Source: Candidatus Falkowbacteria bacterium
Lineage (GTDB): Bacteria; Patescibacteriota; Patescibacteriia; Patescibacteriales; UBA12075
Reading direction: 5' to 3'
Length of the DNA stretch: 64,000 bases
NCBI GenBank assembly: GCA_003514005.1
Contig: DOSJ01000018.1
Span: 33,105-97,104, forward strand
The translations under genes were made by a program, and so were the position numbers. Below the pieces are notes generated by a model. It searched no databases, was not told where the DNA came from, and saw nothing but the letters and a program-made list of their open reading frames with translations. This document shows, piece by piece, positions 34,190 through 64,000 of the stretch. How positions within the stretch are numbered: the stretch's first letter is position 1; each line of letters starts with the position of its first letter.

Positions 34190-34226
34190 AAAAAAGAAGT
34201 GAGTTTTCTAAAAAATCATCAAAAAA

Positions 34227-41050: not shown

Positions 41051-41062
41051 ATTTATCCACTT

Positions 41063-46488: not shown

Positions 46489-46514
46489 AAAATAATCTTA
46501 TTTGATTTTCTATC

Positions 46515-47513: not shown

Positions 47514-47575
47514 GATATCTTGTTTTTATTACAGTGTGTTCTTTATTAATTTTAACGATAATTTAAGGAGAAAAA

Positions 47576-47776
47576 ATGCCAAATCGTAAACCGAAAATCA
47601 AAGAAGACGGGGCGGGTAAATACATTGAAATCAGAGAAGTAAGCGAACGGATTATTCCAGTTGTAACTCGGCTCGGAAACGACAATGGCATCAATCGTAT
47701 TAAGTGCTCGTATATTTCCGAACTTACAAAATTCAATCTTCGCCACGAAGGCTTTACCTGCGAAATTTGCAGATAA
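47576..47776 (+). CDS. Small hypothetical protein (66 aa)
   Basis: AAGGAG SD 7 nt upstream of the ATG, plus its own plus-strand terminator. The overlapping minus-strand ORFs lack such signals. Confidence 0.5.
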   Translation: MPNRKPKIKEDGAGKYIEIREVSERIIPVVTRLGNDNGINRIKCSYISELTKFNLRHEGFTCEICR

Positions 47777-47790
47777 TAGTTCTTCTTACG

Positions 47791-47832
47791 ACCCTCAATG
47801 TTTAGCAATAAACAAAGAGGGTTTTTATTTTT
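47791..47832 (+). terminator. Rho-independent terminator
   Basis: accctc (47791-47796) / gagggt (47817-47822), followed by tttttattttt. Confidence 0.6.
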
Positions 47833-49291
47833 CTAAAACCCCGTTCAAGCCAAAATCTCGAACTTTCTCAATTTTAATATTCACAAAATTCCCAATCAAA
47901 TTCTTATCTCCCGAAAACTTAACTGTCTTATTCGTTCCTGTCCTCGATATCAACTCGCCTTTTTTATTTTGCCCTTCTACCAGAACTTTTACAATTTTCC
48001 CAAAATACGCTTGATTATTTTCCAAGGCCGTTTTTCGGAGTACCTCTGTTAATTCGTGCTCTCTTTGTTTTTTTTCTGTCTGCAAAACGTCATCCTCCAT
48101 CTTCTTCGCCGCAGTCCCCGGCCGCGGACTATACTGCGCAATGTACGCCATGTCATATTTCACTTTTTCAAATAAACCGACAGTATTCAAAAACTGCTCC
48201 CGTGTCTCACCCGGAAAACCGACGATAACATCGGTAGTTAAAGCCACCGGTGCTTGCCAATCGTCATTGGATATTGAATATTGATTATTGATTATTTGAG
48301 AACGAATTTTTTCAATCAATTTAATATAATGTTCAATCGTATATTTCCGATTCATTCTTTCTAAGACATGATTGTCCCCTGCCTGCGCTGGCAAATGAAT
48401 ATGCTTACAAACCTTTTCGCAGTCATTGATAGCGGCAATCAAATCATCACTCATATCTTTCGGATGACTAGTAGCAAACCGAATCCAAAAGTCGCCGGGG
48501 ATGAAGTTGATAACGCGCAAAAGATTTGCAAAATTCGCACTACCCTCCCTTGTCATTCCCGCGTAGGCGGGAATCCAGGGTTTGATGCTCGATTCTGGAT
48601 TCCCGCCTTCGCGGGAATGACAAGAAGAAGCATCAGGTGAAAAATAAGAGTTTACGTTCTGCGCAATCAAAGTAATCTCCTTATATCCACGCCTAACCAG
48701 CTCCTCAACCTCAGAGACAATCTCATCCGCCAACCGATAAACCTCGCGCCCGCGCGCATACGGCACAACGCAATATGTGCAAAAATTATCACAACCATTG
48801 CCGATCGGAACGAAAGCGGAAAAAGAAGAAGAATATTTTGGTAAAATATTCAAATAATCATGGTTTTGATGATTTGCTCTAAGAGATTTGGATTTTGTAC
48901 TTTGGATTTTTTTTGTTTCTTGTTTCTTGTTTCTTGTTTCTTCTTTATCTAAATCGCAAATCGCAAATCGCAAATCGCAAATCCCCCTCGCCGGCAACCA
49001 TATATCCACCATATCTTTCAATTTTTTGATAACATCTTCCCTTTCCGACAAACATCCGGCTAATATAATTCGCGCATTCTTATTCTCCTTTTTAATTCTC
49101 GCAACCAACCCAACCGCCCTGTCCTCAGCCGCCTGCCGAACACCACAAGTCGTAAGCACGACAAAATGCGCCAGCTTTCTTTCAACTGATTCAGTAAAAC
49201 CTAATTCCTCAAAAACCCCAGCAATCCGCTCGGAATCGCTCTTGTTCATTTGGCAGCCGATGGTTATTATGTGGTATGTTTTTTTATTCAT
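47825..49291 (-). CDS. miaB: tRNA-2-methylthio-N6-dimethylallyladenosine synthase (radical SAM methylthiotransferase)
   Basis: YHIITIGCQMNKSDSE, GCDNFCTYCVVPYARGRE and SHPKDMSDDLI motifs. Carries three repeat-derived insertions. Confidence 0.9.
   Translation of the reverse strand: MNKKTYHIITIGCQMNKSDSERIAGVFEELGFTESVERKLAHFVVLTTCGVRQAAEDRAVGLVARIKKENKNARIILAGCLSEREDVIKKLKDMVDIWLPARGICDLRFAICDLDKEETRNKKQETKKIQSTKSKSLRANHQNHDYLNILPKYSSSFSAFVPIGNGCDNFCTYCVVPYARGREVYRLADEIVSEVEELVRRGYKEITLIAQNVNSYFSPDASSCHSREGGNPESSIKPWIPAYAGMTREGSANFANLLRVINFIPGDFWIRFATSHPKDMSDDLIAAINDCEKVCKHIHLPAQAGDNHVLERMNRKYTIEHYIKLIEKIRSQIINNQYSISNDDWQAPVALTTDVIVGFPGETREQFLNTVGLFEKVKYDMAYIAQYSPRPGTAAKKMEDDVLQTEKKQREHELTEVLRKTALENNQAYFGKIVKVLVEGQNKKGELISRTGTNKTVKFSGDKNLIGNFVNIKIEKVRDFGLNGVLEK
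48269..48296. repeat. attgaat/attgatt word array inside miaB
   Basis: ggatattgaatattgattattgattatt, translated as IINNQYSIS. Confidence 0.7.
48552..48621. repeat. Family-1 palindromic element inside the miaB CDS
   Basis: Complete element, translated as CHSREGGNPESSIKPWIPAYAGMTRE. Confidence 0.9.
48913..48984. repeat. Two adjacent heptamer tandem arrays inside miaB
   Basis: gtttctt x4 (48913-48943) and aaatcgc x4 (48951-48984), translated as ICDLRFAICDLDKEETRNKKQETKK. Confidence 0.9.
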
Positions 49292-49294
49292 ATA

Positions 49295-49588
49295 TTATTC
49301 AATTTTCCTTCCACTCTCAATATGCCAGCCGCCTTCAACGCGCCAATAACTTTCCGGGCAGTATTCTTGGAATTTGATTTTTACTTCTACCGAATTCAAA
49401 TCGCTATCAGTCGCGTGTCCAATCGCAATCTGTTTGTCTATGCAATGTTTCCCGCAAGCGCAATGCCAAATATTATAATCCAATTTTTTATCAATTACAA
49501 CATGCCGTCCGCCGCAATGATGCACTTTGTGGTCATCGCCGTGATGATGGATATGATGAAATAAAGATATGATATCTGTCTTTGTCAT
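49295..49588 (-). CDS. Small His/Cys-rich hypothetical protein
   Basis: HHIHHHGDDHKVHHCGG and CACGKHC motifs. The stop lies 3 nt before the miaB start. Confidence 0.55.
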   Translation of the reverse strand: MTKTDIISLFHHIHHHGDDHKVHHCGGRHVVIDKKLDYNIWHCACGKHCIDKQIAIGHATDSDLNSVEVKIKFQEYCPESYWRVEGGWHIESGRKIE

Positions 49589-49661
49589 ATTTAGAGTATA
49601 TCAAAAATAAAATATAAAATAAACGCCTGAAAAATCAATTCCAGGCGTTGTGATAATGTTT

Positions 49662-50474
49662 TCAGATCTTCATTTCCTGATCCAGAGCACTGCAAAATCC
49701 AATTTTTTTCCTTTGGATTATCTCGTCGGGTAAATATTTTTTGGCAATTTCTCGCAAGGGAATTTTACTCACTTCTCTTGTTGTCCTTTTATTCAGCGGG
49801 ATACGCGTCAAATAGTTGACAAGATTAAAATCCAAATATGGAAAAATAACATTTACACTATGGTATCTTGCTTTTTCCAAAAGCGGGTTCAAATGATTTG
49901 CCTGTAGCAAGTCCCAGTGAGTCTGGAATGCCACTAGCTTTTTTTCCGCGCTTTCAGCAAAGCGATGGGCAGGATATCCACCCAATATTTCATCAATCCC
50001 ATCATGAGCAATACCTGCCTTGAAACCGTTTATTTCCATCATTTCATAGGCCATAAAAACCGCTACGTCGCCATTGGTACACTCAATATTCGGCAAAGAA
50101 AATGCGACAATATCTCTTACTTTCTGGATTTTTTTAGCACTTGGGATTAATTCATGATGAATTGTTCCAAACATACCCGCAGCCATTCTGGCGAAATGAA
50201 TATCCGGATGATCAGCACTGATTCCGACCGTGTGCGTGTGAATCTCAACCGAATCTCCGACAAACCGCCTTGCCATTGCCAAGCAAAATGATGAATCCAC
50301 TCCCCCGGAAAGCGTAGTTGATATTTTTCCATCGTTTAGTTCAAAACAATTTTTTACTGCCGATTCGATAGATTCACGAAACAAAATCTCTAGCTCTGTT
50401 AAATTACATTCAATTAACGGCTTTGCCAATATGCTTAATAAAATGGCTCTTTCCCAATGATTATCTCTTCTCAC
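49662..50474 (-). CDS. PP-loop ATP pyrophosphatase, asparagine synthase C-terminal-domain-like (no glutaminase domain)
   Basis: TLSGGVDSS PP-loop and an LPDEIIQRKKIGF tail typical of AsnB. GTG start with an AAGGAG SD. Confidence 0.55.
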   Translation of the reverse strand: MRRDNHWERAILLSILAKPLIECNLTELEILFRESIESAVKNCFELNDGKISTTLSGGVDSSFCLAMARRFVGDSVEIHTHTVGISADHPDIHFARMAAGMFGTIHHELIPSAKKIQKVRDIVAFSLPNIECTNGDVAVFMAYEMMEINGFKAGIAHDGIDEILGGYPAHRFAESAEKKLVAFQTHWDLLQANHLNPLLEKARYHSVNVIFPYLDFNLVNYLTRIPLNKRTTREVSKIPLREIAKKYLPDEIIQRKKIGFCSALDQEMKI

Positions 50475-50561
50475 TTTTATTCTCCTTATTTAAGGTTCAA
50501 AAAAAAATACAAACATATATTTTCTTTAGCATGTTTTATATTGAAAGTCAATAATAACCAT

Positions 50562-50599
50562 AAAAAACCGCAAGAATTATAAATTTCCTGCGGCTTTTT
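50562..50599 (-). terminator. Rho-independent terminator
   Basis: Minus strand: gccgcagg...cttgcggt followed by tttttt. Confidence 0.5.
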
Positions 50600-50655
50600 A
50601 TAAACAAAATTTTACTAAAAATCTCCTACTCCCTAATTACCTAATCACTAATTAA

Positions 50656-52452
50656 CTATTCCACATCCCCCATCTTCTGCAAATTCACCAGCTTGGCATA
50701 AAGCCCGCCTTTGGCACGCGAAAGTTCGATATGATTTCCTTGTTCGACTATTTTTCCGTTTTCCAAAACAATTATTTTATCGGCTTTACGAATTGTGCTT
50801 AAACGATGCGCAATAATAATTGTTGTGCGACCTTTGCTAATCTTATCCATGGATTCTTGAATTAATTTTTCCGAGTAGCTGTCGAGATTACTTGTTGCTT
50901 CGTCAAAAATCAGAATTCGCGGATTTGCCAGAATCGCGCGGGCGATGCCGACGCGCTGGCGCTGGCCACCCGAGAGTTTGATGCCGCGTTCGCCGACTTC
51001 GGTGTCATATTTTTTGGAGAGCTTGTCGATAAATTCCTCGGCATTGGCAATGCGCGCCGCGGCCTTGATTTCGTTCATACTCGCATCCGGCTTGCCATAG
51101 GCAATGTTATCGCGAACTGTCATGTCAAATATTTCCACTTCTTGCGGAACAATCGCGATGTGTTTTCGGAATGCGTACAGGTCATAATCTTTCAGATCGA
51201 TATCATCCAAAAGCACAGCGCCTTTGCTTGGGTCGTAATGACGGTAAATCATGCGCGCCAATGTCGTCTTACCACCACCCGATGGTCCGATTAACGCGGT
51301 TACACAGCCGGAATTAATTTTTAAGTTAACTTTATTCAAGGCCTTGCCTTTGCTTTCTTTATACACAAAGTCAACATTTTTAAATTCAATCTGTCCGGTA
51401 ACATTTTTCGGAATTATTCCGTTTTCTTTATTGATTATTTCAGACTCTTCTTGGAACAATTCATACAGCCTTTCAATCGCCTCGCTCGATTCCATTACAC
51501 GATCATAGGTTTTTGAAATATTAAAAAAAGAAATCAAAGCTTTTGTTGATATGGTAATCACGAAAACCAAACTGCCGATTGTTATACTCCCCTTCCAGAC
51601 AAAATAAATTCCAAGAATCATTATTAAGGCCAAACACATATCCATAAAAAATGCCCTCAGCCAATTAAAGCCAAAAATAGTTTTGAATTCTTTTTTCTCA
51701 TCAACCACTATTTTTTGGTAAGCATCGGCATAATCTTTTTCCTCGCGCTTTTCCTGTACGAAAGATTTAACTGTATTAATATTTATAATTGCTTGTGTCA
51801 TTTTTCCGGAAATCTCTTCATAACCGTCATAGCGAACTTTACGGAACGGTGCAACTTTCTTATTTGCATAAAACGTCATATAAACCAGGAGTGGAGAGAA
51901 AAATAAAAAAATCAAACCAAAACGCCAGTCCATGACAAAAAGCACAATAGTGGTTATTAAAACCTGAAAAACAGTGGACAAAAATCCCCAAAAGATATTA
52001 CTCAAAAGATTGTCGATTTTATCTATGCCACGCTGGATTTTGATAATTTTCCCACCGGTATTTTCCCTCTCATGATAATGTAATGACAATTCCAACATTT
52101 TTCTTTGAGCCAAGACTGATAAGTATTTACTAGTATCAATAATTGTTACAATAATCCGATTATCCGTAAAATAATTAATCCCAGTATCCACCTGATTGAA
52201 CGCAAGCATAATAATAATCAAGACAATTATTTCCTTGATATTTTCTGGCTTAAAATCACTAATCATATCAATTATCAATTTCAATATATATGGACTTGCC
52301 AATCTGATAATCTGAACAAAAAATATCAAAAGCACCAGAATACGAATCTGTTTTTTCTTGATTTTTATCAAAAACCAAAGTTTTTGCCAAAAATTTATTA
52401 TTATTTCTTTGTTTATTTTTTCTTTTTCCATGCAAAAAAGGGACAAATCCAT
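50656..52452 (-). CDS. ABC exporter, fused permease/ATPase (MsbA-like)
   Basis: 6-TM N-terminal half, Walker A GPSGGGKTT, LSGGQRQRVGIARA, and ILIFDEATS. An alternative ATG lies at 52431. Confidence 0.85.
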   Translation of the reverse strand: MDLSLFCMEKEKINKEIIINFWQKLWFLIKIKKKQIRILVLLIFFVQIIRLASPYILKLIIDMISDFKPENIKEIIVLIIIMLAFNQVDTGINYFTDNRIIVTIIDTSKYLSVLAQRKMLELSLHYHERENTGGKIIKIQRGIDKIDNLLSNIFWGFLSTVFQVLITTIVLFVMDWRFGLIFLFFSPLLVYMTFYANKKVAPFRKVRYDGYEEISGKMTQAIININTVKSFVQEKREEKDYADAYQKIVVDEKKEFKTIFGFNWLRAFFMDMCLALIMILGIYFVWKGSITIGSLVFVITISTKALISFFNISKTYDRVMESSEAIERLYELFQEESEIINKENGIIPKNVTGQIEFKNVDFVYKESKGKALNKVNLKINSGCVTALIGPSGGGKTTLARMIYRHYDPSKGAVLLDDIDLKDYDLYAFRKHIAIVPQEVEIFDMTVRDNIAYGKPDASMNEIKAAARIANAEEFIDKLSKKYDTEVGERGIKLSGGQRQRVGIARAILANPRILIFDEATSNLDSYSEKLIQESMDKISKGRTTIIIAHRLSTIRKADKIIVLENGKIVEQGNHIELSRAKGGLYAKLVNLQKMGDVE

Positions 52453-52492
52453 CCCTTGTTATATTAATGTATACTCAATGCAAATCGCTACT

Positions 52493-52625
52493 AATCCGTT
52501 CCGTAAAGGCTTAAATTAGTTATTCTCTTGCTGTGGAACTCGACTTTTTTCTTTATTATTTATTTTGGAAGCGTCTCAGACAGTCCTCGCTTCGACAATA
52601 ACTAATTTAAGCCTTTACTCCACTA
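52493..52625 (-). repeat. Hairpin element with conserved core, copy 3 (inverted relative to copy 1)
   Basis: Same arms as copy 1. Its core is gaggactgtctgag..35-nt AT-rich insert..gagttccacag. Confidence 0.75.
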
Positions 52626-52693
52626 ACTTTTATTTATTATAAATAATTACTACTTAATAATACGGAAAAAATCAAAAAATGTTACATTTTGCT

Positions 52694-54112
52694 TTATTTT
52701 ACAAGCTTTTCACCAATTCGAAACACATCGCCGGCACCCATGAGGATTATGATGTCATCTCGCATGATTTTATCTCGAAGGTATTTCTCACACTCCAGCT
52801 GCGTCGCAATATACTTCACTTCTAACTTCTTACTTCTAACTTCTAACTTCTCAACTAAATCCTTACTATGTACTCCGCCTTGGGCTTCACGTGCGCTGCC
52901 ATAGATATCCAAAACAATAACTTCATCCGCGTCATCAAAGCTTTTAGCAAAATCATCGAGCAGGGCTTTTGTTCGTGTAAACGTGTGCGGATGAAAGACT
53001 ACACGGATTTTTTTGTTGCCATATTTTTGACGAGCACCAGCAAGGGTTGCTTTTATTTCGGTTGGATGATGGGCATAGTCATCGAGAATCAATGCGCCAT
53101 TATATTTGCCCATAGTTTCCATTCGTCTGGCTGTTCCCTTAAATTCACCGAGGTAAGCCCGAATATCAACCAGGTCAACACCAAGCTCAATCGCTGACGC
53201 GATAACCGCAAGTGCGTTGTAAATACTATGACGGCCGGAAAGTTGAATTGAGAAACTGCCAAGCTCTGTATTCAATAGCACGTCATCGTCTTCGGCATCA
53301 AAATTGTCTGCGCCAATCTTTACTTTGAAATATTGTCTATCACCCATTTGCTGAATATCGTATGCGACATAATCGGCGGATTCATCAATCGCGTAGCTGA
53401 TAACTTTTGCCAAAGTATTGACCGGAGCAATTTTACGGATAATCGGATCATCAAAATTGGCAACCAACCAGCCGCTTTTTGGGATTTTTTTAATAAACTC
53501 AACAAAGACTTGATTATAGTCATTGTGTGTTGGGAAAAAATCCGGGTGATCGTAGTCGATATTATTCAGAAGCACGGCGCGCGGGGAAAAAAGTTTTAAT
53601 TTATTCTGGTATTCATCGGCTTCGATTATCAGATAATTTGATGGGCCAATAATGCTTGCGCCGTCCAGTTGTGGAACACGTGCGCCTATCATAGCGTTCG
53701 GTCCTTGATTTGTCATTTTTAAAACATACGCTAGCCAAGCCGTTGTCGTGGTTTTGCCATGCGAACCGCAGACTGCGATGCCAAAATAATCTTGGAACAC
53801 AGCGCCCATAGCCTCGGCATAAGTCATTATTTTTTTATTTTGTTTTTTTACCAAAGCCAATTCTTCGTTATTGTTTTCGTTATACGCTGTTGAATGAATA
53901 ATTAAATCAATATTTGCCGGAATGTTTTTTTCGGAAAAACCATTGAAAAATTTAATGCCTGAGTCAAGCAAAACTTCATCGGTCATAAATACTTCGTTTA
54001 CATCCGAACCGCTTATCTCATACCCTTTGGCAGACAAAAACTGCGCCAGCATCGTCATGCCCACGCCTTTTATTCCGATCATGTAAATTTTTTTTATATT
54101 TTTTAGGCTCAT
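52694..54112 (-). CDS. murC: UDP-N-acetylmuramate--L-alanine ligase
   Basis: IYMIGIKGVGMTMLAQFL, GSHGKTTTT and DDYAHHP motifs. Confidence 0.9.
   Translation of the reverse strand: MSLKNIKKIYMIGIKGVGMTMLAQFLSAKGYEISGSDVNEVFMTDEVLLDSGIKFFNGFSEKNIPANIDLIIHSTAYNENNNEELALVKKQNKKIMTYAEAMGAVFQDYFGIAVCGSHGKTTTTAWLAYVLKMTNQGPNAMIGARVPQLDGASIIGPSNYLIIEADEYQNKLKLFSPRAVLLNNIDYDHPDFFPTHNDYNQVFVEFIKKIPKSGWLVANFDDPIIRKIAPVNTLAKVISYAIDESADYVAYDIQQMGDRQYFKVKIGADNFDAEDDDVLLNTELGSFSIQLSGRHSIYNALAVIASAIELGVDLVDIRAYLGEFKGTARRMETMGKYNGALILDDYAHHPTEIKATLAGARQKYGNKKIRVVFHPHTFTRTKALLDDFAKSFDDADEVIVLDIYGSAREAQGGVHSKDLVEKLEVRSKKLEVKYIATQLECEKYLRDKIMRDDIIILMGAGDVFRIGEKLVK
52814..52852. repeat. Heptamer array (tctaact-type) inside murC
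   Basis: cttcact tctaact tcttact tctaact tctaact tctc, translated as EKLEVRSKKLEVK. Confidence 0.8.
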
Positions 54113-55383
54113 AAAGATCGGGTAAAGAATTTTATCGCCGGTATCACGTAAATTTTTTTATCAACGGACTCGACTATATCTTCTTCGTCATAAGTTATAA
54201 TAAACGCATCTTTTAATTTTAATTCATCCATTGCACCCAAAAGGCTTCTTATCTCCCTACTTTTGGTTTTGCTATCGGATAATGTCCAGGATACTTGGAT
54301 TAATTGATTAAGCCGATTTTTTTCTTTTAGCACGAAATCAACTTCATAATTATTACTCGTCTTATAATACATAACATCTTTCCCTGCTTTAAGAAATTCT
54401 AAAAGAACTAAATTTTCCAACATTTTTCCTTTGTCCTCTGAAAACTTGTAAGCCACATTTTTTGCAAGACCCGTGTCAATCGCATAATATTTTTTCAATG
54501 CCTTGCTTTGTTTTTTTAATGAAAAGGAAAATTGCGGCACCTCTACAATCAAGAATGCATCCTTTAGGTAGCCCAAATAATCCGTAATCTGTTGGAATGT
54601 GCTATTTAAAGGCTCTTTAAGTGATTCAATCGATAAAAGTCCGCCGGAATTTGATATTAAATACAAAGCCAATTTTTTGACCGTATCTTTAGAGCGGATA
54701 TCATAGCGCGCAATAATATCTTTTTCCAAAATATCAAAAAAATAATTTTTCAACAGCTCTGAATCAGCGCCAATGACTGGTGCCGGAAAACCGCCGATAT
54801 CCAAAAAAACATCAAAAAGTTTTTTAATCTTTTCTTCTTGAACAACTAATTCTTTTTTATTTTTGATATTTACTCCGGAAAATGATAAAAACTCGGCAAA
54901 GTTAAGCGGCCAAGCAGTATAAGATTTGTGGCGTCCGGTAATCAGAGTTGACAGCTCGCCGCTGAGCAGAGTAGCCGATGAACCGGTAATATATATTTTA
55001 TACTTGCTGCCATCTCTTAATTTTCTTACTGCTTTCTCCCAATTTTTTATTTCTTGGATTTCATCAAAAAAAACATGAGTTAAACCTTGGTCAAAGTATT
55101 CTTTGTATGTATTTATTAATACTTCAATAATTTGCGGATTATTATTTTCAATAAAAAACGGGTCTTCAAAATTGATATACAAAAAAACCGCTTTCGGATC
55201 AAGCGCCTTAATCAATAATTTCAATATAGATGACTTTCCGCAACGGCGCACACCGACAATATCGATTATTTCTTGGCTATTTGTTGGAATATCATTTAAT
55301 ATTGAGCGATTAAAATATTTATCATTATCTACAGAATTTTGCCAATATTCAATCAATTTTATTAATTCATCTTTATTTTTCAT
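54109..55383 (-). CDS. AAA ATPase with DUF4143-like C-terminus
   Basis: Walker A GVRRCGKSS and Walker B VFFDEIQ. ATGA overlap with the murC start. Confidence 0.65.
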   Translation of the reverse strand: MKNKDELIKLIEYWQNSVDNDKYFNRSILNDIPTNSQEIIDIVGVRRCGKSSILKLLIKALDPKAVFLYINFEDPFFIENNNPQIIEVLINTYKEYFDQGLTHVFFDEIQEIKNWEKAVRKLRDGSKYKIYITGSSATLLSGELSTLITGRHKSYTAWPLNFAEFLSFSGVNIKNKKELVVQEEKIKKLFDVFLDIGGFPAPVIGADSELLKNYFFDILEKDIIARYDIRSKDTVKKLALYLISNSGGLLSIESLKEPLNSTFQQITDYLGYLKDAFLIVEVPQFSFSLKKQSKALKKYYAIDTGLAKNVAYKFSEDKGKMLENLVLLEFLKAGKDVMYYKTSNNYEVDFVLKEKNRLNQLIQVSWTLSDSKTKSREIRSLLGAMDELKLKDAFIITYDEEDIVESVDKKIYVIPAIKFFTRSL

Positions 55384-55515
55384 AATATACGGCTTATGAC
55401 TTTTATTAATTATAATAATATATAACTTATGATAATTAATAAATTATAATTTGTCAATGATATTTTTTTCTTCTGCATTGGGTCACAATTCATTAGACAC
55501 CGTAGTACGGCGTCT

Positions 55516-56640
55516 CTACGATAATAATTTGCTTATTATTTCCACAATTTTTTCTTCGCAATCGGTTTTAATAACTGTTTTGATATTATTTTTTAATCTA
55601 TTCCGCAAAATCTCGTCATTTAAAATCATTTTAATATTATTTAACAAAATTTCTCCGGTCAATTCATTTTGATTTAAAACAATTGCCGCGTCTGCTTTTG
55701 CAAACACTGCGGAATTATCTTCTTGGTGCGAATCGGGCATCGGAATTATAATTGTCGGTTTGGCGACATATGATAGCTCGGTCAAAGAGCCGATGCCGGC
55801 GCGAGAGATTATAATATCGGCGGCGGAATAATTTTTTATCAAGCCAAAAACATCAAGAAATTCAAAATATTTATAATAAATATTTGTTTCCATAGCGCGC
55901 ATCATAGGTAGGCCGGCTTTGCCCTTGCCTGTGATATGCAAAATCTGACAAACTTTTGTCAGGCTATCAATGCTTTTAATAACAAGCTCGTTAATAGCAC
56001 CCGCGCCCGTACCACCACCCATCACAAGAACAACCGGTTTATTGTCACGCAACCCGATTTTTTGCATTGCTTCTCTTTTGCTGATTTTTACAGAAGTGAA
56101 TTCTTTACGAATCGGATTACCAACCAAAACCGCTTTATCCCCGTAATCTGTCAAAGACTTTTCAAAAGTCACCATAACCTTTTTTGCAAACGGCGCCATC
56201 AGTTTATTTGCCAAACCCGGTCGCACATCCAACTGCTGTATCAAAACCGGAATGCGTAAAATCCAAGCTGCCCAGACCAAAGGCACGCTAACAAAAGAGC
56301 CAGCGCTAATAATTAAATCCGGCTTCTCATTTATTAAGATAAAAAGAGACTGAAAAAAAGCAATTTTTATTTTAAAAATATCAACAACATTTTGCCAAGA
56401 CCAATAGCGCCGCAATTTTCCGGAAAAAATCGCACGATATTCAATCCCTGCCGATTCTGCCATTTGCCGCTCAATACCTGTTTTGGTTCCAATCCAAAGA
56501 TATTGAATATTGAATATTGAATATTGAATATTTCCCAGTATTTCCGATATTGCTAAAAGAGGAGTTACTGAGCCACCAGTTCCTCCGCCGGTTAGAATTA
56601 TTTTCTTAGATATTTGATTTGACATCATTTTATAATTCAT
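55516..56640 (-). CDS. murG: Undecaprenyldiphospho-muramoylpentapeptide beta-N-acetylglucosaminyltransferase
   Basis: ILTGGGTGGSVTPLLAI and ISRAGIGSLTEL motifs. Confidence 0.9.
   Translation of the reverse strand: MNYKMMSNQISKKIILTGGGTGGSVTPLLAISEILGNIQYSIFNIQYLWIGTKTGIERQMAESAGIEYRAIFSGKLRRYWSWQNVVDIFKIKIAFFQSLFILINEKPDLIISAGSFVSVPLVWAAWILRIPVLIQQLDVRPGLANKLMAPFAKKVMVTFEKSLTDYGDKAVLVGNPIRKEFTSVKISKREAMQKIGLRDNKPVVLVMGGGTGAGAINELVIKSIDSLTKVCQILHITGKGKAGLPMMRAMETNIYYKYFEFLDVFGLIKNYSAADIIISRAGIGSLTELSYVAKPTIIIPMPDSHQEDNSAVFAKADAAIVLNQNELTGEILLNNIKMILNDEILRNRLKNNIKTVIKTDCEEKIVEIISKLLS
56499..56533. repeat. Heptamer array (atattga x4) inside murG
   Basis: Translated as GNIQYSIFNIQYL, just after the G-loop helix. 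Confidence 0.85.
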
Positions 56641-56682
56641 TATAAACTTTTTTAATTCTTACTTCTAACTTCTTACTTCTTT

Positions 56683-57822
56683 TTATCTTAACTTCGTCTG
56701 TTTACTAATATTCACAAGAATCCCGCAAGCGGCCAGTGCCGCGAGAATCGCCGAGCCGCCGTAGGAAATTAACGGCAAAGGCACACCGGTCATTGGCATT
56801 AAGTTTATGATTCCACCGATATTTATGATTGCTTGGATAACTATCCAGCTGACAATGCCGATTGCCAATATTTTTCCAAAATCATCAGGCGCATTTTTTG
56901 CTATCAGATAACCGCGATAGAAAAGGAATAAATACGCGCAGATCAAAGCAATACAAACCAGCAGGCCGGTTTCTTCGGCGATGATTGCAAATATCGAATC
57001 GCCACTGACTTCAGGCAGATACATGTATTTTTGCCGGCTCGCGCCTAACCCGCGCCCAAGAACACCGCCGGAACCGACTGCAATCAAAGATTGATTGATT
57101 TGATAACAAGCGCCCCTACTATCATAGTTCGGATCAAGCAAACATTTAAAACGCTCTTGCTGATAAGTTTTTACGCTAATAATTGCGGTTAATGCCAAAA
57201 CGCCGACAAGACAGATGGTAACCAGATGTCTTTTTTTGCCTCCGCCGGCAAAATATACGATCAAAGAAGTAGCGGTTACGATCGATAGTGTTCCCAGGTC
57301 CGGCTGTAAAAGCATTAACAAGGCAATAAACCCAAGTACGGCGATAAACGGGCCAATGCCCTGCGAAATTTCATGTAGACTTTTTTTTCTGGTTTCAAGC
57401 CAAGCGGCCAAATACAGCAAAAAAGAAAGCTTTACAAATTCTGAAGGTTGGAGCGAAAACCCGAAAACATTAATCCAGCTCCGCGCTTTGCCGTAGTGTG
57501 CTGAAAGCCCTGGAATAAAAACTAAAAGCAACAAAAAAATCGAACCAATCAAAAACCAAAAAGCGTATTTTCGCCATAGATGATAATCTACGCGCGAAAA
57601 AAATATAAACGCCGCAATGCCAATAGTCAAACCTTGAAGCTGATGTTTAAAATAATAATATACATCTCCAAACTTATCATAAGCCACCACCGCCGAAGCG
57701 CTGGAAAGGCTTATCAAACCGAATATGACAATCACGCCAATGATAAGCATTAGCGCCTTATCCGGTTCGTGATAACCAATCCGCTTGTCGAGAAGTTTTG
57801 TTAGTTTTTTTTTGAGAGACAT
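56683..57822 (-). CDS. ftsW: SEDS-family peptidoglycan polymerase FtsW/RodA
   Basis: 10 TM segments, QPSEFVKL, and TGVPLPLISYGGS. Confidence 0.85.
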   Translation of the reverse strand: MSLKKKLTKLLDKRIGYHEPDKALMLIIGVIVIFGLISLSSASAVVAYDKFGDVYYYFKHQLQGLTIGIAAFIFFSRVDYHLWRKYAFWFLIGSIFLLLLVFIPGLSAHYGKARSWINVFGFSLQPSEFVKLSFLLYLAAWLETRKKSLHEISQGIGPFIAVLGFIALLMLLQPDLGTLSIVTATSLIVYFAGGGKKRHLVTICLVGVLALTAIISVKTYQQERFKCLLDPNYDSRGACYQINQSLIAVGSGGVLGRGLGASRQKYMYLPEVSGDSIFAIIAEETGLLVCIALICAYLFLFYRGYLIAKNAPDDFGKILAIGIVSWIVIQAIINIGGIINLMPMTGVPLPLISYGGSAILAALAACGILVNISKQTKLR

Positions 57823-57832
57823 TAAAACAATA

Positions 57833-57902
57833 AATTCCTAAATTATAATTTCTAATATCTAAATATCAAAATTTAGAAATTAGAAATTAGAAATTAGAAA
57901 TT
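57833..57902. repeat. 32-nt-arm hairpin of ttagaaa heptamers in the mraY-ftsW spacer
   Basis: Arms 57833-57864 and 57871-57902; 28 of 32 positions are complementary. Confidence 0.8.
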
Positions 57903-57906
57903 CATT

Positions 57907-58956
57907 TTATAATGTTTTATCCAACCAAAACAAAATCAGCCCGATAACGGAAAATACTCCGGATAAGAGCCAGGAGCGCATTACTATTTTTGGCTCAGTC
58001 CAACCTTTGGCTTCGAAGTGATGATGGATAGGTGCGGATAAAAACACTTTTTTGCCGTTGCGGAATTTTTTGGAAAGAATCTGAACGACTGTTGATAAAG
58101 CTTCAATTAAAAATATCAATCCAATAAAAGGTAAAATAAAAGCGGTATTGGTATAGAGCGCGACCAGCGCCAAAGTTACGCCGAGCGAAATCGAACCGGT
58201 ATCCCCCATTATAAATCGAGCGGGATTGATATTGAACCACAAAAAAGCCAAAAGCGCGCCGACAATCACGCCGCAAAAAGTTGCCAAATCATACTTCCCT
58301 TGCGCAAATGAAATCACGCCATACGATGCGAAAGCAAAAAGGAGCGAACCGCCGGCTAAGCCGTCCAAGCCGTCGGTCTGATTTACGGCAAAAGCCGTGC
58401 CGACAACGATAGCGATAAAGAAAAGAATATACCACAAACCGAATTGCACAAATCCGATAAAAGGAATATGCACTATGCTCCAGTCCAATTTGAAATAAAA
58501 CCACCAAGCGCCGACAAAAGCGATCAAGGCGTAAATAATCAGCTTGTGGCTGAATTTTATGCCTCGCTTCTTATAGCCCAGCCGTCTGACATCCAGATAA
58601 TCATCGATTAAGCCGACCAGTGCCGATACAACCAAGCACCCGAGTGGCAAAAGCGTCTGTGAGCGGGAAAGAAAATTTAATTGTTCAAAAATATTCCAAG
58701 GCAAAAATAGCGCCAGATAATAAAAAACGACACTAAAAATCAAAACAGTTACCCATATCAACAAACCGCCCATGGTCGGGGTACCGGCCTTGTGGGCATG
58801 TAGTTTTGAAAACAGCGGCGTTGAACCGTCATCCCGAATCTGTTTGCCAAGCTTATATTTATACAAAAAATACGTAAAGAATGGCGTCCAGGCAACCGTA
58901 AAAACAAAAGCAAATGTCGTAAAAAAAAGAATCTTTATAATGTAAAAATCTTGCAT
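57907..58956 (-). CDS. mraY: Phospho-N-acetylmuramoyl-pentapeptide transferase
   Basis: NQTDGLDGLA, MGDTGSISLG and PIHHHFE motifs. Confidence 0.95.
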   Translation of the reverse strand: MQDFYIIKILFFTTFAFVFTVAWTPFFTYFLYKYKLGKQIRDDGSTPLFSKLHAHKAGTPTMGGLLIWVTVLIFSVVFYYLALFLPWNIFEQLNFLSRSQTLLPLGCLVVSALVGLIDDYLDVRRLGYKKRGIKFSHKLIIYALIAFVGAWWFYFKLDWSIVHIPFIGFVQFGLWYILFFIAIVVGTAFAVNQTDGLDGLAGGSLLFAFASYGVISFAQGKYDLATFCGVIVGALLAFLWFNINPARFIMGDTGSISLGVTLALVALYTNTAFILPFIGLIFLIEALSTVVQILSKKFRNGKKVFLSAPIHHHFEAKGWTEPKIVMRSWLLSGVFSVIGLILFWLDKTL

Positions 58957-58960
58957 ATAA

Positions 58961-59377
58961 CTATCTAAAATTAATTAAATAAACCGAAGAAATTGCCGCC
59001 AGCAAAACGATGTTGGACAACAAGCCCGTGATTAATAAAATGTATGAAATAATGATTATGTCTTTGTTTCTTTGCAAAAACATAACAATTAAAAAATTAA
59101 ATAAAATAATTATAAATCCCAAAACCGGAATAATAAAAATTTTTTCCGCATTACCATAGAAATCAATCCCAAAATCAACATTATAATGAAGAGCGATTTG
59201 ATCGGTTCCGGTTGTTACCTTGATAAATCTGGCGATTAGCCAAATCAAAACATTTGCAAATACGGCAGTGGCTAAAAAAATTTTTACATACGTATAAGAC
59301 CAGGCACTAAAAAAAGCGCTTTTCGCGTTTTTTCGAAAATTATAGGTGAGATTAAAAAAATTTATCCTTTCCAGCAT
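58961..59377 (-). CDS. Hypothetical membrane protein
   Basis: 138 aa, 3-4 TM segments. Stop lies 4 nt before the mraY start. Confidence 0.5.
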   Translation of the reverse strand: MLERINFFNLTYNFRKNAKSAFFSAWSYTYVKIFLATAVFANVLIWLIARFIKVTTGTDQIALHYNVDFGIDFYGNAEKIFIIPVLGFIIILFNFLIVMFLQRNKDIIIISYILLITGLLSNIVLLAAISSVYLINFR

Positions 59378-59498
59378 ACATCCTTACTTTAACATAATAT
59401 AGAGAAAAATCAAAGATGTATTTGTTATCTGATTTTCTTTTTATTTTTTCGAAAAATATGTTATAATATATTTATAATTTAAAATCCACAATCAATCT

Positions 59499-61235
59499 AT
59501 GCTTTCTGACCAACAACTAAAAAACATCTTGCTTAAAGCTGAAATTTTATCATCTGAAAAATTCGACAATCTACAAGAAGAAGCAAAAACGCTCGGGAAA
59601 TCTATCGAATATTATTTGAACGAGAAAAATATTATTAGCCCTCTGGTTTTATACGAAAACGCAGCCGCTTATTATAAAATTCCATTTATAGATTTAAAAA
59701 ATCAAACCATCCGCAAAGACATTCTTTTTTTAATTCCCGAACCGATTGCCACTACCCATAATATAATCGCCTATGACGCGAATGACAAAGAAATCAAGCT
59801 TGCCGTTCTTGATCCAGATGACATGGAAATTTTTGAATTTATCAAAAAAAAGACCGGTCTTAATGTCAAAATCAGCTTGACCACGCCGGACAATATCAAA
59901 GAAACTCTGAAACAATACCACAAAAGCTTGAAAGCGGAATTCAATTATTTAAGCGAAGAAAAAGAAGATGGAAAAGGTGCGACTGAAGAAAATAAAGATT
60001 TGAAAAAATTGGCAGCCGATTTGCCGGTTGTCCGCATCGTTGATACGCTTTTGGAGTACTCTATTATGGAGGGCGCAAGCGATATCCACATTGAACCGGA
60101 AGAAAAAAACGTGCTGGTGCGCTATCGTATCGACGGTATTTTGCGCAATGTTATGGTATTGCCAAAAACCGTACAATCAGGAATCGTCGCCCGTATCAAA
60201 ATATTAGCCAATCTAAAAGTCGACGAGCATCGTCTCCCGCAGGACGGCCGTTTTAAAATATCCACAAACGAATACAAGGTGGCATTCCGCGTTTCCATTA
60301 TTCCGACTTTTGACGGCGAAAAGCTTGTTTTACGCCTGCTTAACGAAAAAGCGCAAGTATTGACTTTGGAACAACTCGGACTGCAAAAGAACCCTTTGGA
60401 GGTTTTGAAATCAAACGTTAAAAAACCGCACGGCATTATCCTGGTTACCGGCCCGACCGGTTCCGGAAAAACCACGACTCTCTACACGGTTTTGAATATC
60501 CTAAACACGCCGGAAGTCAATATTTCAACAGTCGAAGATCCAATCGAATACCGCATGCCGCATGTGAACCAATCGCAAGTCAATGCCAAAATCGGCTATA
60601 CTTTTGCATCAGGACTGCGCGCCTTTTTAAGGCAAGACCCGAATATTATCATGGTCGGCGAAATCCGCGATCAAGAAACAGCGGAAATCGCCATCCAAGC
60701 GGCCATGACCGGACATCTTGTATTATCCACTATCCACACCAATGATGCCGCCGGCACGATGCCACGCTTATCCGAAATGGGAGTACCGACTTTTTTAATC
60801 GCCACTACCGTTAATATTATCATTGCCCAGCGCCTTGTTCGCAAGATCTGCACAAACTGCATTCAAAGCTACAACCTTGAGCCGGAAACTATCAAAGAGC
60901 TGGAAAAACAGCTGAATATCGAAAATATTTTAAAAACTTTGGAAAAAGAAAAAATCATTATAGACGCGAAAAAAGGACTGAAATCAATGCTTTTTTATCG
61001 TGGCAAAGGCTGCAAACACTGTAATAACACCGGCTACAAAGGCCGCATCGGCATTTACGAAATATTGGAAAACTCTGAAACCATTTCCGCACTTATGCTC
61101 AAAAATGCCAGCGCCCACGAAATAAACCGCGAAGCCATAAAAAACGGCATGCTCGCAATCGTTGAAGACGGCTTTATTAAAGCACGCAACGGCATTACGA
61201 CGCTGGAGGAAGTGCTGAGAGTTACTAAGGAATAA
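59499..61235 (+). CDS. pilB: Type IV pilus assembly ATPase (GspE/PilB family)
   Basis: Walker A GPTGSGKTT, an Asp box, a His box (LSTIHTN), and a tetracysteine CTNC...CKHC. Confidence 0.85.
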   Translation: MLSDQQLKNILLKAEILSSEKFDNLQEEAKTLGKSIEYYLNEKNIISPLVLYENAAAYYKIPFIDLKNQTIRKDILFLIPEPIATTHNIIAYDANDKEIKLAVLDPDDMEIFEFIKKKTGLNVKISLTTPDNIKETLKQYHKSLKAEFNYLSEEKEDGKGATEENKDLKKLAADLPVVRIVDTLLEYSIMEGASDIHIEPEEKNVLVRYRIDGILRNVMVLPKTVQSGIVARIKILANLKVDEHRLPQDGRFKISTNEYKVAFRVSIIPTFDGEKLVLRLLNEKAQVLTLEQLGLQKNPLEVLKSNVKKPHGIILVTGPTGSGKTTTLYTVLNILNTPEVNISTVEDPIEYRMPHVNQSQVNAKIGYTFASGLRAFLRQDPNIIMVGEIRDQETAEIAIQAAMTGHLVLSTIHTNDAAGTMPRLSEMGVPTFLIATTVNIIIAQRLVRKICTNCIQSYNLEPETIKELEKQLNIENILKTLEKEKIIIDAKKGLKSMLFYRGKGCKHCNNTGYKGRIGIYEILENSETISALMLKNASAHEINREAIKNGMLAIVEDGFIKARNGITTLEEVLRVTKE

Positions 61236-61240
61236 AAAAT

Positions 61241-61297
61241 CTAAATTATAATTTCTAATGTCTAAATTTAGATATTATAATTTAAGAATTAGAAATT
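61241..61297. repeat. ctaaattataat / aatttctaat module element in the pilB-pilC spacer
   Basis: The modules A-B-C ... C'-A'-B' are arranged so that the pairings cross. Confidence 0.6.
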
Positions 61298-61304
61298 TTA
61301 TAAT

Positions 61305-62453
61305 ATGCCTGTAAATTTTTCACAAGAACAATTAAGCAAAACCGGAGTCGAAGTAAAAAACGGTAAAGAACAGTCGTCGACTATGGATAAAATCAATAAT
61401 TACTTGCTTCGATTTTCCAAAGTCCCTTTAAAAGAAAGGCTGTTTTTTGTTCAACACCTTGGCGTTATGCTTAAGTCGGGCATTTCTTTATCAATTGCCA
61501 TAAAAACTTTAGCCAAGCAGACTGAACATAAGTTTTTTAAAAAAGTACTGACCGATATCGGCACCAAAATCGAAAAAGGTTCAAGTTTCGCTGAAAGCCT
61601 TGATAGCCATAAAAGAATTTTCGGAGAATTGTTTGTAAATATGATCGAAGCCGGTGAACTTTCCGGAAAACTGGAAGAAGTCTTGCGACAGATTTTTTTG
61701 CAGATGAAAAAAGACCACAAGCTTATTTCAAAAGTAAAGGGCGCCTTAACTTACCCGGCGGTAATCCTTATGGCCATGTTCGGCATCGGTACATTCATGC
61801 TGGTTTTTGTTGTTCCAAAAATTACCGCCATGTTTACGGAAATGAATGCCGAGCTTCCTTTGCCAACAAAGGTATTGATCGGTCTTAGCGGACTGATAGC
61901 AAATAACGGGGTAATATCCGCAGTTATCTTTGTCGTACTAGTTTTTTCTTTTATTAAATTTTCAAAAACGCACAAAGGTAAATATCTGATACAGTCTCTC
62001 TTGCTTAAAGCGCCTGTCATTTCACCGATTATAAAAAAATTTAATCTTGCCCGTTTCGCGCGTAATATCAGCTCACTTCTCAAAACAGATATCATGATTA
62101 TAAAAGCGTTCCAGATTACCGCAAGTGTTTTGGGTAATCTTCACTACCGCGAAGCATTAATCGTAATGAGCAAGAAAATCAAAGACGGTGGAAAACTGAG
62201 CGATGTAATAAATACTTATCCAAAGCTTTTTACGCCGGTTGTCGCGCAAATGGTCGCAATCGGTGAAGAAACCGGAGAGCTGGACAATATTTTGGTTGAA
62301 TTAGCCGAATTTTATGAAGAAGAGGTTGATCAAATTATGGAAAGTTTGCCTGCTATCATCGAGCCATTGCTTATACTAATCTTGGGACTTGGTGTCGGCG
62401 GCGTTGCGGTCGCGATTATTATGCCGATGTATTCGATTACATCTTCGATCTAA
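61305..62453 (+). CDS. pilC: Type IV pilus platform protein (GspF/PilC family)
   Basis: Two T2SSF repeats (FVNMIEAGELSGKL, VAQMVAIGEETGELD) and 3 TM segments. Confidence 0.85.
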   Translation: MPVNFSQEQLSKTGVEVKNGKEQSSTMDKINNYLLRFSKVPLKERLFFVQHLGVMLKSGISLSIAIKTLAKQTEHKFFKKVLTDIGTKIEKGSSFAESLDSHKRIFGELFVNMIEAGELSGKLEEVLRQIFLQMKKDHKLISKVKGALTYPAVILMAMFGIGTFMLVFVVPKITAMFTEMNAELPLPTKVLIGLSGLIANNGVISAVIFVVLVFSFIKFSKTHKGKYLIQSLLLKAPVISPIIKKFNLARFARNISSLLKTDIMIIKAFQITASVLGNLHYREALIVMSKKIKDGGKLSDVINTYPKLFTPVVAQMVAIGEETGELDNILVELAEFYEEEVDQIMESLPAIIEPLLILILGLGVGGVAVAIIMPMYSITSSI

Positions 62454-62456
62454 AAA

Positions 62457-64000
62457 ATGAAAAAATCCCCATTTTCATCACAAAACAAACTTGGATTTTC
62501 TTTAATGGAAGTCATGATATCGCTGGCAATCATATCAATATTGATTTCTGGCGTCTTTGGCTTGATACTGCTTTCCATCCGTATAACCGAAGAAAATAAA
62601 TATGCCGTTGAAGCGATCAATCTTGCCAATCAACGCATGGAAAGAATCCGCAATATGCCCTACAATCAGGTCGGCACTGTCGGCGGTACAATACCAGGAC
62701 CAATCCCACAAATGGAAACAGTCGTGCGCAACGGTTCATTTGATGTATATACTTATATCCTTTTTTATGATGACCCTTATGACGGTGAGATCGGATCAAC
62801 CACGCCGGATATAAATGGCTGTGGCACTGATTACAAAATTGTTACGATTAAAGTTGTTTGGCAGGGAAAATACGGAGAAAAAAGCATAAAAGTTTTCTCA
62901 AAAATAATTCCAAAAAATATTGAAACCAGCGACGGCTATGGCACTATGAAAATATCGATTAATGATTTGAACGGCTTGCCTGTACCAAGCGCCGATGTGC
63001 ATGTCTACAAAATACTGACATCAACCACAACTATCAGTGCCAGCTATCCAGTCGGAGCAAATGGAGTGCTTTATCTGCCGGTTCCGGCGGCAACCGGATA
63101 CAGGCTGACGGTCAGCAAGCCCGGTTATGAAACAGTCTCTACCATGGAAGCGACAAGCACGAACCCAAATCCGATTCCACAGGACTGGAATGTTTCCGAG
63201 GGCGCTTTGGTAGAAAATAATATCGAGATTAATAAATTAGTCAACCTTGACATCCAGACGGTTTCACAATCCTTGCCGGATAATTGGCAAGTTAACACCG
63301 TGTCCGCTCCAAGCGACAGCATAAATCCCAAAGCCGGAATCGATAGTAGCGATAATATGTATTTTATCTGGCAAAAACAAGATTCGGCATCTTCATCATT
63401 GTACATGCAAAAATATGACACAGCCGGAATTAAACAATGGGCAAATGACAAACAGGTATACAGTAATACAAATTTTCAAAAAAATCCCGATATCAGCGTA
63501 ATCGTCAATGGCACCTCTTATGTTGTATGGCAAGACACTTCATCCAATCTCAAAGCAACCGCTCCGCTTGTCAAAGCTCCAAAAATATATAATCGACAAA
63601 TAAAAAATATTGAAATCGCGCAATCCGATATTCAAAATAAATTTTGGCTGGAAAAAATAAATTTTCCAATAATGGCTTATGAAACAAAAAAAGAGATCAA
63701 TAATATAGTCTATTTTTTTAAAAATTCCTTAACCAAGAAAATCGCGAATGCGGCCGGAAGCATTGTTCAGTCAAAAATAGGAAGCAATACATACGTTGGG
63801 TCAAGCATGTCGGTAACTTTTAACGCACCACCGACTGCTGGCAATGTACTTATTGCCATTGCCACACATCGAAATTCCAATGACTCATTCAGCGCTCCTA
63901 CAAATGCGAATGGAAATTTTATCGTATCAGCGTATTCCAATACTGCCTGGAGCCTTGATGTTGGAATTTGGCACAAAGTTGCCGGTGCAGGAGAGGATTC
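62457..64000 (+). CDS. Large pilin-like protein (prepilin N-terminus; continues beyond the window)
   Basis: Hand translation gives MKKSPFSSQNKLG/FSLMEVMISLAIISILISGVF. The frame stays open for 514 codons to the window end, and it starts 4 nt after pilC. Confidence 0.7.
   Translation, partial: MKKSPFSSQNKLGFSLMEVMISLAIISILISGVFGLILLSIRITEENKYAVEAINLANQRMERIRNMPYNQVGTVGGTIPGPIPQMETVVRNGSFDVYTYILFYDDPYDGEIGSTTPDINGCGTDYKIVTIKVVWQGKYGEKSIKVFSKIIPKNIETSDGYGTMKISINDLNGLPVPSADVHVYKILTSTTTISASYPVGANGVLYLPVPAATGYRLTVSKPGYETVSTMEATSTNPNPIPQDWNVSEGALVENNIEINKLVNLDIQTVSQSLPDNWQVNTVSAPSDSINPKAGIDSSDNMYFIWQKQDSASSSLYMQKYDTAGIKQWANDKQVYSNTNFQKNPDISVIVNGTSYVVWQDTSSNLKATAPLVKAPKIYNRQIKNIEIAQSDIQNKFWLEKINFPIMAYETKKEINNIVYFFKNSLTKKIANAAGSIVQSKIGSNTYVGSSMSVTFNAPPTAGNVLIAIATHRNSNDSFSAPTNANGNFIVSAYSNTAWSLDVGIWHKVAGAGED

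Follow-up and report, generated by a model that had tools for sequence, protein, structure and literature searches.

The stretch of DNA described here (the window) comprises 64,000 nucleotides (nt) of contig DOSJ01000018.1 from a Candidatus Falkowbacteria bacterium (Patescibacteriota; assembly GCA_003514005.1, positions 33,105 to 97,104 of the forward strand), and includes the genes murG, murC, miaB, miaA, ftsW, mraY and dnaX, names with which the Pfam assignments agree. Our subject is a set of short tandem arrays of 7-nt units, here called heptamer arrays, which lie in the spacers between these genes and also, in frame, within several of them. The MurG protein (55516-56640, minus strand) matches, at 100% identity, a protein from a metagenome-assembled genome named by NCBI as Candidatus Falkowbacteria; the remaining named MurG matches are Patescibacteria or Parcubacteria, and the contigs bearing MurG derive from Rifle groundwater metagenomes. 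A MurG search of genome contigs gave distant homologues only (Kazan, Peptoniphilaceae, Eubacteriales), and among the database relatives of the window MiaB there was none between 65% and 100% identity. The GC content of the window is 33 to 44%, and positions 45516-64000 (18.5 kb) are 100% identical in two independent assemblies, JGI 3300001242 and ENA ERZ909587.

Exact arrays of at least three copies were counted in the window and in 30 dinucleotide-preserving shuffles of it. At period 7 there were 5 such arrays, 26 to 33 nt long, compared to 0.0 in the shuffles, and none was found in the window at periods 5, 6 or 8 to 15. A looser scan, tolerating 15% mismatch, gave 14 arrays at period 7 compared to 0.8 in the shuffles, and 0 to 3 arrays at periods 6 and 8 to 15, with no more than 2 at any period from 8 to 15. 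Head-to-tail 7-nt units in three or more copies, in excess over both base composition and other unit lengths, characterize the heptanucleotide class of simple repeats, and the window shows both properties. Tandem Repeats Finder returned 20 period-7 rows, which cover every locus listed in a preliminary description of this DNA and add further arrays in miaA (47289-47321) and the miaB linker (Table 1). That description had counted at least six unit sequences; we find at least nine distinct necklaces. It had also matched words between murG, miaB and the hairpin upstream of dnaX, and these arrays do share a unit: ATATTGA, ATTGAAT, TATTGAA and AATATTC all reduce to a single necklace once rotation and reverse complementation are allowed. 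The recurrence of murC units in the murG-ftsW spacer, which it had likewise reported, amounts to 88% identity over 32 nt (family D5), and its TTAGAAA-type hairpins and the hairpin of aaatgta-type units at 16864 (AAAATGT units in our parsing) were recovered as well. Identical-necklace pairs numbered 13 compared to 0.45 expected from random genomic 7-mers, or about 6 compared to 0.26 when each hairpin was counted once.

The low GC content, together with the many weak A/T-rich repeats of other periods that the window also contains, might suggest that the arrays are chance low-complexity sequence or an assembly artefact. This explanation is refuted: the shuffles yielded 0 to 0.8 arrays where 5 to 14 were observed at period 7, the arrays cannot be an assembly artefact because the two independent assemblies match base for base, and relatives from other samples show equivalent arrays.

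Table 1. Heptamer arrays and array-built hairpins of the window, with positions in window coordinates.
Feature	Position	Strand	Context and remarks
murG array (ATATTGA)x4.7, 100% identity	56500-56532	-	murG 55516-56640; encodes NIQYSIFNIQY, aa 37-47
miaB array ATTGAAT/ATTGATT	48266-48296	-	miaB 47825-49291; encodes QIINNQYSISN
miaB linker array (TTTCTTG)x5.4 + adjoining (AAATCGC)x4.7	48909-48983 (48909-48946, 48951-48983)	-	inter-domain linker
miaA array (GATTTCC)x4.7	47289-47321	-	miaA 46515-47513, aa ~65-75
murC array (ACTTCTA)x5.4	52818-52856	-	murC 52694-54112; encodes KLEVRSKKLEVK, aa 419-432
Weak array (TATCAAT)x3	52266-52285	-	ABC-transporter gene 50656-52452
ftsW-murG spacer array (TTACTTC/TAACTTC)x4.3	56652-56681		fills spacer; without hairpin
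mraY-ftsW spacer hairpin	57833-57902		arms: TTTCTAA-type units 57833-57862 and (TTAGAAA)x4.3 57873-57902
T2SSE-like/T2SSF-like spacer hairpin	61241-61296		z -2.3; core CTAAATTATAATTTCTAAT identical to 57838-57856
Spacer hairpin of AATTTCT / AATTAGA arrays	23088-23153		z -2.95; core element with 1 mismatch per arm
dnaX-upstream hairpin	19446-19576		fills spacer; AATATTC / TATTGAA arms 19446-19476, 19526-19576; dnaX 17795-19441
Hairpin of AAAATGT / ATTTTAC units	16858-16970		between patatin-like gene and tRNA-Gln
Short array (TCAAAAA)x3	31372-31393		intergenic
Short array (ATATAAA)x3.4	49598-49621		intergenic

Array density is about 14-fold higher in non-coding DNA, with 14 in the 12% of the sequence that is non-coding compared to 7 in the 88% that is coding. 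A 7-nt unit in a gene is translated in all three frames, and the coding units are therefore mostly stop-free: five of the seven have no stop codon in any frame of the coding strand, and the other two arrays contain variant units that remove the stop. In murC, for example, a T-to-A change in the third unit converts an in-frame TAG to AAG exactly where a perfect array would give a stop. Of the spacer units, 12 of 14 have a stop in the direction of the gene. This difference between stop-free coding arrays and stop-bearing spacer units is the signature of a selective filter acting on translated sequence.

Orthologue alignments place the MurG, MurC, MiaA and MiaB arrays all in variable loops. In the AlphaFold model of MurG (mean pLDDT 89.5) amino acids (aa) 37-47 form the loop after helix 25-36 and the first residues of strand 44-51, and in the alignment the array fills a loop of variable length with the net length unchanged. 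The miaB array at 48266-48296 is a 10-aa insertion relative to the orthologue in L010 (handles of this type denote the relatives and other contigs compared), and the linker arrays of the same gene, encoding ICDLRFAICDL...KEETRNKKQETKK, add 16 aa relative to L010. The miaA loop has AAATCGG in the window compared to an AATTTCC array in the L009 orthologue, and the murC loop has GAAGTTA compared to AAATCAG in L012. The coding inserts are not conserved ancestral sequence, since in orthologues at 65 to 68% identity they are absent or the equivalent loop has another unit.

Among the 120 closest MurG and the 120 closest MiaB proteins of Patescibacteria, we scored runs of at least three residues repeated at a given lag. 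Lag-7 runs numbered 42 in MurG and 74 in MiaB, compared to about 7 to 30 at the other lags (i.e., lag 7 was 3 to 6 times commoner), and 33/120 MurG and 50/120 MiaB proteins had at least one. Eighty-one of the 116 lag-7 runs could be decoded as three-frame readings of a 7-nt unit (49 exactly, 32 within one residue), which could practically not arise by chance; the decoded units numbered at least 44, the commonest being AAATTAC, AATTTTC and AAATTCC. By the numbering of the window proteins the runs map to three loops of MurG (aa 32-47, 178-195 and 239-258) and four of MiaB (aa 101-143, 212-251, 331-348 and 453-467). The window's own MurG and MiaB arrays fall inside these hot loops, the ATTGAAT/ATTGATT array within aa 331-348 and the linker arrays within aa 101-143, and lineages differ in the unit that they carry. 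Protein-level selection for heptad or coiled-coil repeats was considered as the primary cause and was ruled out, as the units also occur in spacers, 81/116 runs decode as three-frame 7-nt units, and the MurG segment is modelled as loop and strand, not helix.

The trimer (ATATTGA)3 is present in at least 120 metagenome contigs and in 26 viral contigs. Among the metagenome contigs listed (at least 120), 125 (ATATTGA)n runs have starts and ends in each of the seven phases, their flanks are without consensus, their lengths tail off from 21 to 76 nt, and adjoining variant units turn them into compound arrays; unfixed ends without conserved flanks or terminal repeats are a further property of the heptanucleotide class. 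A mobile element with fixed ends was rejected for the arrays in general on account of these random phases and flanks, and the arrays behave as microsatellites. The preliminary description had thought a common mechanism or element type likely; one period-7 process operating in both spacers and open reading frames (ORFs) agrees with the data, and a discrete element with fixed ends is not supported for the arrays in general, the TTAGAAA-type hairpins excepted. Contigs picked solely by one (ATATTGA)3 match contained, over 692 kb, another 151 period-7 arrays with different units, with 17 arrays at period 8 and 13 at period 9, and heptamer richness is therefore a property of the whole genome. One contig of 8177 nt (L067, Ga0247842_10012208) had 16 separate AATATTC arrays in 8 kb. 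A period-7 excess was also found in related Parcubacteria loci and in a 52%-GC Kazan genome, and two contigs of the (ATATTGA)3 scan, L123 and L148 (59% GC), each had 11 period-7 arrays of many G+C-rich units, so that heptamer-rich genomes also occur outside AT-rich lineages.

Turnover of the arrays is far faster than that of the flanking sequence. In the 85%-identical relative L004 the murG array is of equal length with 4 substitutions, and the ftsW-murG spacer array is absent from the equivalent spacer. Closer pairs were compared in other lineages. The MiaB genes of L160 (69-1445) and L161 (1501-2922) have flanks that are 94 to 95.5% identical, whereas loop 2 is occupied by (AAATTAC)4 in one gene and by (AATTTTC)4 in its counterpart, of equal length, with no gap, and with 66% identity. 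Loop 1 (the linker) of the same pair is 50% identical with 78 gap columns and has been rebuilt with other arrays, including (CCCGATT)n; (AAATTAC)3 is present in loop 1 of L161. The MiaB proteins of L163 and L162 are about 91% identical, and L163 has an exact 30-nt insert, CCCGCTTCGCCAAAGCGATAGCGAGGCGAG, whose ends are self-complementary and which interrupts an (AAATTAC)n array midway (~2133-2162), and a second 30-nt insert in a C-terminal loop (~2824-2853); divergent patches adjoin the MiaB loops in this pair. Small dispersed repeats embedded in heptamer arrays of Nostoc are said to have been described in a 2008 Genome Research paper, and the hairpin insert of L163 would parallel these.

These results are probably best explained by the arrays being 7-nt microsatellites that arise from a slippage-type mutational process biased to 7 nt and filtered by selection. 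Such a process would duplicate, delete and homogenise DNA in 7-nt steps, and would act throughout this genome and across Patescibacteria generally; for the molecular step we infer strand slippage or mis-realignment, in replication or in repair, as the likeliest candidate, possibly aided by recombination between arrays. Selection would then decide which arrays survive. Intergenic spacers would tolerate any unit, and inverted array pairs within them would fold as long AT-rich hairpins that may have been recruited as terminator-like or RNA-end structures. In proteins, arrays would persist only in the few permissive surface loops, where the net change in length is a multiple of 3 and the unit is stop-free in three frames. 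Orthologous loops would carry different units by lineage because the arrays are short-lived relative to their flanks.

Several observations weigh against this explanation. No copy-number polymorphism in 7-nt steps was seen in this organism, the two assemblies of this population being identical. What differs between relatives is whole arrays, replaced, gained or lost, and not steps of +/-7 nt, while compound arrays in unrelated contigs fit slippage. The L160/L161 swap alters 2 positions per unit at constant length, which looks more like conversion or block replacement. An array of 4-5 units in an essential ORF is frame-safe only in 3-unit changes, making stepwise homogenisation awkward. The exact arrays bunch at 26 to 33 nt with few of 3 copies, which is not a simple geometric distribution of lengths (in a small sample). 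Unit families are shared within the genome far above chance, and ATATTGA was found in only 1 of the 81 decoded arrays, namely that of the window's own MurG; local slippage alone does not predict this. Slippage also leaves the choice of 7 nt unexplained.

The main rival explanation is that arrays are written or moved as blocks, by ectopic gene conversion, by templated repair from donor arrays, or by very small mobile elements like the small dispersed repeats of Nostoc, and that copying accounts for the presence of a unit family at more than one locus of a genome. The 13 shared-necklace pairs are in keeping with this, as are the constant length of the L160/L161 swap and the occurrence of (AAATTAC)3 in another loop of that gene, and the two 30-nt inserts of L163, one of them hairpin-like and within (AAATTAC)n. 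So is the likeness between miaB 48259-48297 and the dnaX-upstream arm 19539-19577, which are 87% identical including the same terminal variant units (family D14); but the ATTGATT terminal variant also adjoins ATTGAAT arrays in unrelated contigs, and this likeness may be convergent. The (ATATTGA)n arrays of the metagenome contigs, without fixed ends, phases or flanks, argue against block copying, and the divergent patches of L162/L163 suggest that ordinary homologous recombination between strains could import alleles. Further, no reverse transcriptase, transposase or Y1/RAYT gene was found among the ORFs of the 64 kb window, and an array-making enzyme of these types encoded there was rejected for that reason. 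On balance we consider block copying as the general explanation unlikely, though less so than the other rivals.

The three TTAGAAA-type hairpins (23088, 57833, 61241) also count for block copying. They share a 19-nt core, CTAAATTATAATTTCTAAT, which has 7 matches with no more than 3 mismatches at the 3 loci compared to 0.3 expected; two of the matches are exact, the variant units keep their order, and the shared stretch is 19 to 28 nt. As in REPIN- or MITE-like families there are several dispersed, conserved copies that fold as hairpins (z -2.3 to -7.9), and among the arrays this was found for the TTAGAAA-core hairpins only. By sequence these three hairpins thus appear to be copies of one dispersed palindromic element, and they alone among the arrays behave in this way. 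A cognate transposase (RAYT or other) was not found among the window ORFs; a faint Y1_Tnp match lies beside murG in the relative L011. The hairpins are dispersed, palindromic and intergenic like REP/REPIN-type palindromes (PMC3116915), but they are unlike them in the lack of a tyrosine transposase in the window and in having arms made of 7-nt arrays, which is not a REP feature.

A separate palindromic element of about 80 nt, TTGTCATTCCCGCGAAGGCGGGAATCCAG...CTGGATTCCCGCCTTCGCGGGAATGACAA, was observed at 48550-48629, 39688-39767, 25439-25518, 34118-34197 and 41061-41095, with half copies at 20549-20568 and 43192-43211. One copy lies in frame within miaB and falls in the radical-SAM domain of the protein (aa 222-247, SCHSREGGNPESSIKPWIPAYAGMT), at a loop that bears a heptamer array in relatives, a coincidence of position that can also be counted for block copying. 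Rickettsia has in-frame palindromic elements, which this GTCATTCCCGCG... element in miaB resembles.

Several spacers between co-directional genes consist almost wholly of an array and its inverted copy. The hairpin upstream of dnaX folds at -42.2 kcal/mol (z -7.2; 19442-19580), and that of the mraY-ftsW spacer at -27.9 kcal/mol (z -7.9; 57823-57906), the latter followed by UUUAUUGUUUUA; those at 23083 and 61236 are weaker. The hairpin at 16858-16970 has a perfect stem of 31 bp (-39.9 kcal/mol, z -10.7), after which the transcribed (minus) strand has 7 consecutive U; its arms pair perfectly though the units inside one arm are only about 70% alike. We weighed whether the intergenic arrays could be selected cis-regulatory elements, acting as terminators, attenuators, mRNA-end stabilisers, promoter elements or sites for a single-strand nucleic-acid-binding protein that reads 7 nt, with the coding copies as by-products. 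That the hairpins exactly occupy spacers between co-directional genes, and that the arms at 16858-16970 pair perfectly, would fit such roles. A stem followed by 7 U (16855-16975) is a terminator feature; the stems are long and A/U-rich, not short and G+C-rich, and they were not called by the consensus scan. In the Rfam scan of the window tRNA-Gln was the sole match, and no hairpin reached the gathering threshold of a described RNA family.

The mraY-ftsW spacer bears on the same question. Hairpins of unrelated sequence occupy it in the window, in L004 (1-127), in L009 (8740-8815) and in L011 (2604-2701); they are formed by heptamer arrays of two units, by a perfect 25-bp G+C-rich palindrome in L009 (-53 kcal/mol), and by a short stem with a U-run in L011. 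Replacement of sequence with retention of a hairpin would agree with a cis-regulatory role, but the spacer is only 6 nt in L007 and 27 nt in L012, and a hairpin is therefore not required there; a structural role of this hairpin is possible. The best sigma-70-like site of the 55-62 kb region (TTGATA-16-TATAAT) lies in the window's mraY-ftsW hairpin and points toward ftsW; consensus promoter matches numbered 41 compared to 22 expected, and such matches are abundant in AT-rich DNA. A translational role has been proposed for TAACTGA repeats in other bacteria and a cold-shock protein binds heptamer repeats (PMC4679880), and both points count for the idea. The ftsW-murG array is unstructured and absent in the 85% identical relative, and identical units occur in loops of ORFs, an implausible site for such a role. 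Cis-regulatory selection as the origin of the arrays seems to us improbable, more so than block copying.

The preliminary description knew of no account of such arrays. The class is in fact known: in the summaries given in PMC4679880 and PMC4692102, a 2007 survey found that heptanucleotide repeats outnumber the other long simple repeats in most prokaryotic genomes, DNA-polymerase slippage was proposed as the explanation, and coding regions were expected to hold units in multiples of 3. So far as these summaries go, the window arrays resemble the surveyed repeats in the over-representation of 7 nt, the many units, the mostly non-coding position and the proposed slippage origin, and differ in their host, Patescibacteria, and in that a third of the arrays lie in frame in essential housekeeping genes. 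The TAACTGA repeats of Beggiatoaceae occur in 2 to 6 copies, are mostly intergenic with variant units interleaved, and copies within ORFs are restricted to the stop-free orientation and lie peripherally or in surface loops; sets lie mostly just 5' of start codons, one unit dominates with related heptamers rarely repeated, and Cyanothece strains differ by indels in 7-nt steps (PMC4679880). Our arrays resemble this Beggiatoaceae/cyanobacterial system in the number of copies per set, in being mostly intergenic, in having variant units, and in that in-ORF copies are stop-free and in loops; they are unlike it in the at least nine coexisting unit families and the many inverted pairs that fill spacers. 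TAACTGA itself occurs once in the window and never in tandem.

The GGGAATC repeats of Xanthomonas are about 90% intergenic, mostly between co-directional ORFs and sometimes as paired inverted repeats; these and the GGGGA(C/T)T repeats of Nostoc vary in length and sequence among close relatives while position is kept, and Calothrix/Nostoc possess genome-specific heptamers (PMC4692102). The window arrays share the intergenic bias, the co-directional spacers, the inverted pairs and the keeping of position while sequence varies, whereas the Xanthomonas and Nostoc units are G-rich and quadruplex-capable and those of the window are A/T-rich and form ordinary hairpins (PMC4692102). No tandem copy of GGGAATC or GGGGA(C/T)T was found in the window.

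Like the STRR repeats of Calothrix/Nostoc, whose cyanobacterial units are CCCCAGT, TTGGTCA and CAACAGT, the heptamer families described here are genome-specific; they differ in phylum and in units, and none of the three STRR units has a tandem copy in the window. In a limited literature collection we found nothing tying heptamer repeats to Patescibacteria or the candidate phyla radiation, and nothing on repeat peptides. The window arrays thus fit the defining features of the known bacterial heptanucleotide class, with Patescibacteria as a new host; what seems new is the host phylum, the many unit families found side by side, and how systematically the same loops in essential enzymes have been colonised.

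The genomes of Patescibacteria are tiny and gene-dense, and offer an unusually clean view of a heptamer excess that has been noted since 2007. As arrays enter the same few loops of the universally conserved MurG, MurC, MiaA and MiaB, thousands of public orthologues can be read as a natural time series in which arrays are born, replaced and decay. Through the arrays, conserved proteins gain 7-residue repeats that are specific to a lineage and that lengthen and diversify them; the arrays can also mislead alignment, gene calling and assembly, and could act as strain markers. A more speculative idea, which we rate slightly below block copying in general, is that an active templated or copy-paste process writes heptamer blocks of about 30 to 40 nt, again and again into the same permissive loops of essential enzymes and into spacers, that small hairpin elements then target the arrays, and that this might occur in Patescibacteria and perhaps other heptamer-rich bacteria. 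If so, minimal genomes would possess a process dedicated to generating diversity in protein loops and regulation, as opposed to passive slippage; block replacement, if it reflects an active mechanism, would add a new way in which protein loops vary in the candidate phyla radiation.

Some further features of the window were observed. The murG-murC junction (54109-55383) is an insertion hot spot, with an AAA_14/DUF4143 ATPase gene in the window; in L012 the junction (7601-7663) is empty, and in other relatives it holds an amidohydrolase, GIY-YIG or faint Y1-transposase-like gene (L009/L010, 11264-12953; L011, 5014-7011). A second copy of the flank and of part of tRNA-Gln (16782-16854) lies about 2.9 kb away (13523-13874 compared to 16717-16880; 73 nt at 97% and 87 nt at 71%), and the 3' end of an ABC-F gene is also duplicated (11983-12118 compared to 13615-13750; 136 nt at 88%). 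These duplications look like the attachment-site scars of an integrated island carrying ORFs that match no Pfam family. Beside this putative island, on either side of the ABC-F gene (9235-13308), are a RhuM-family gene and a Fic/DOC gene, which are accessory or toxin-like cargo amid a housekeeping region.

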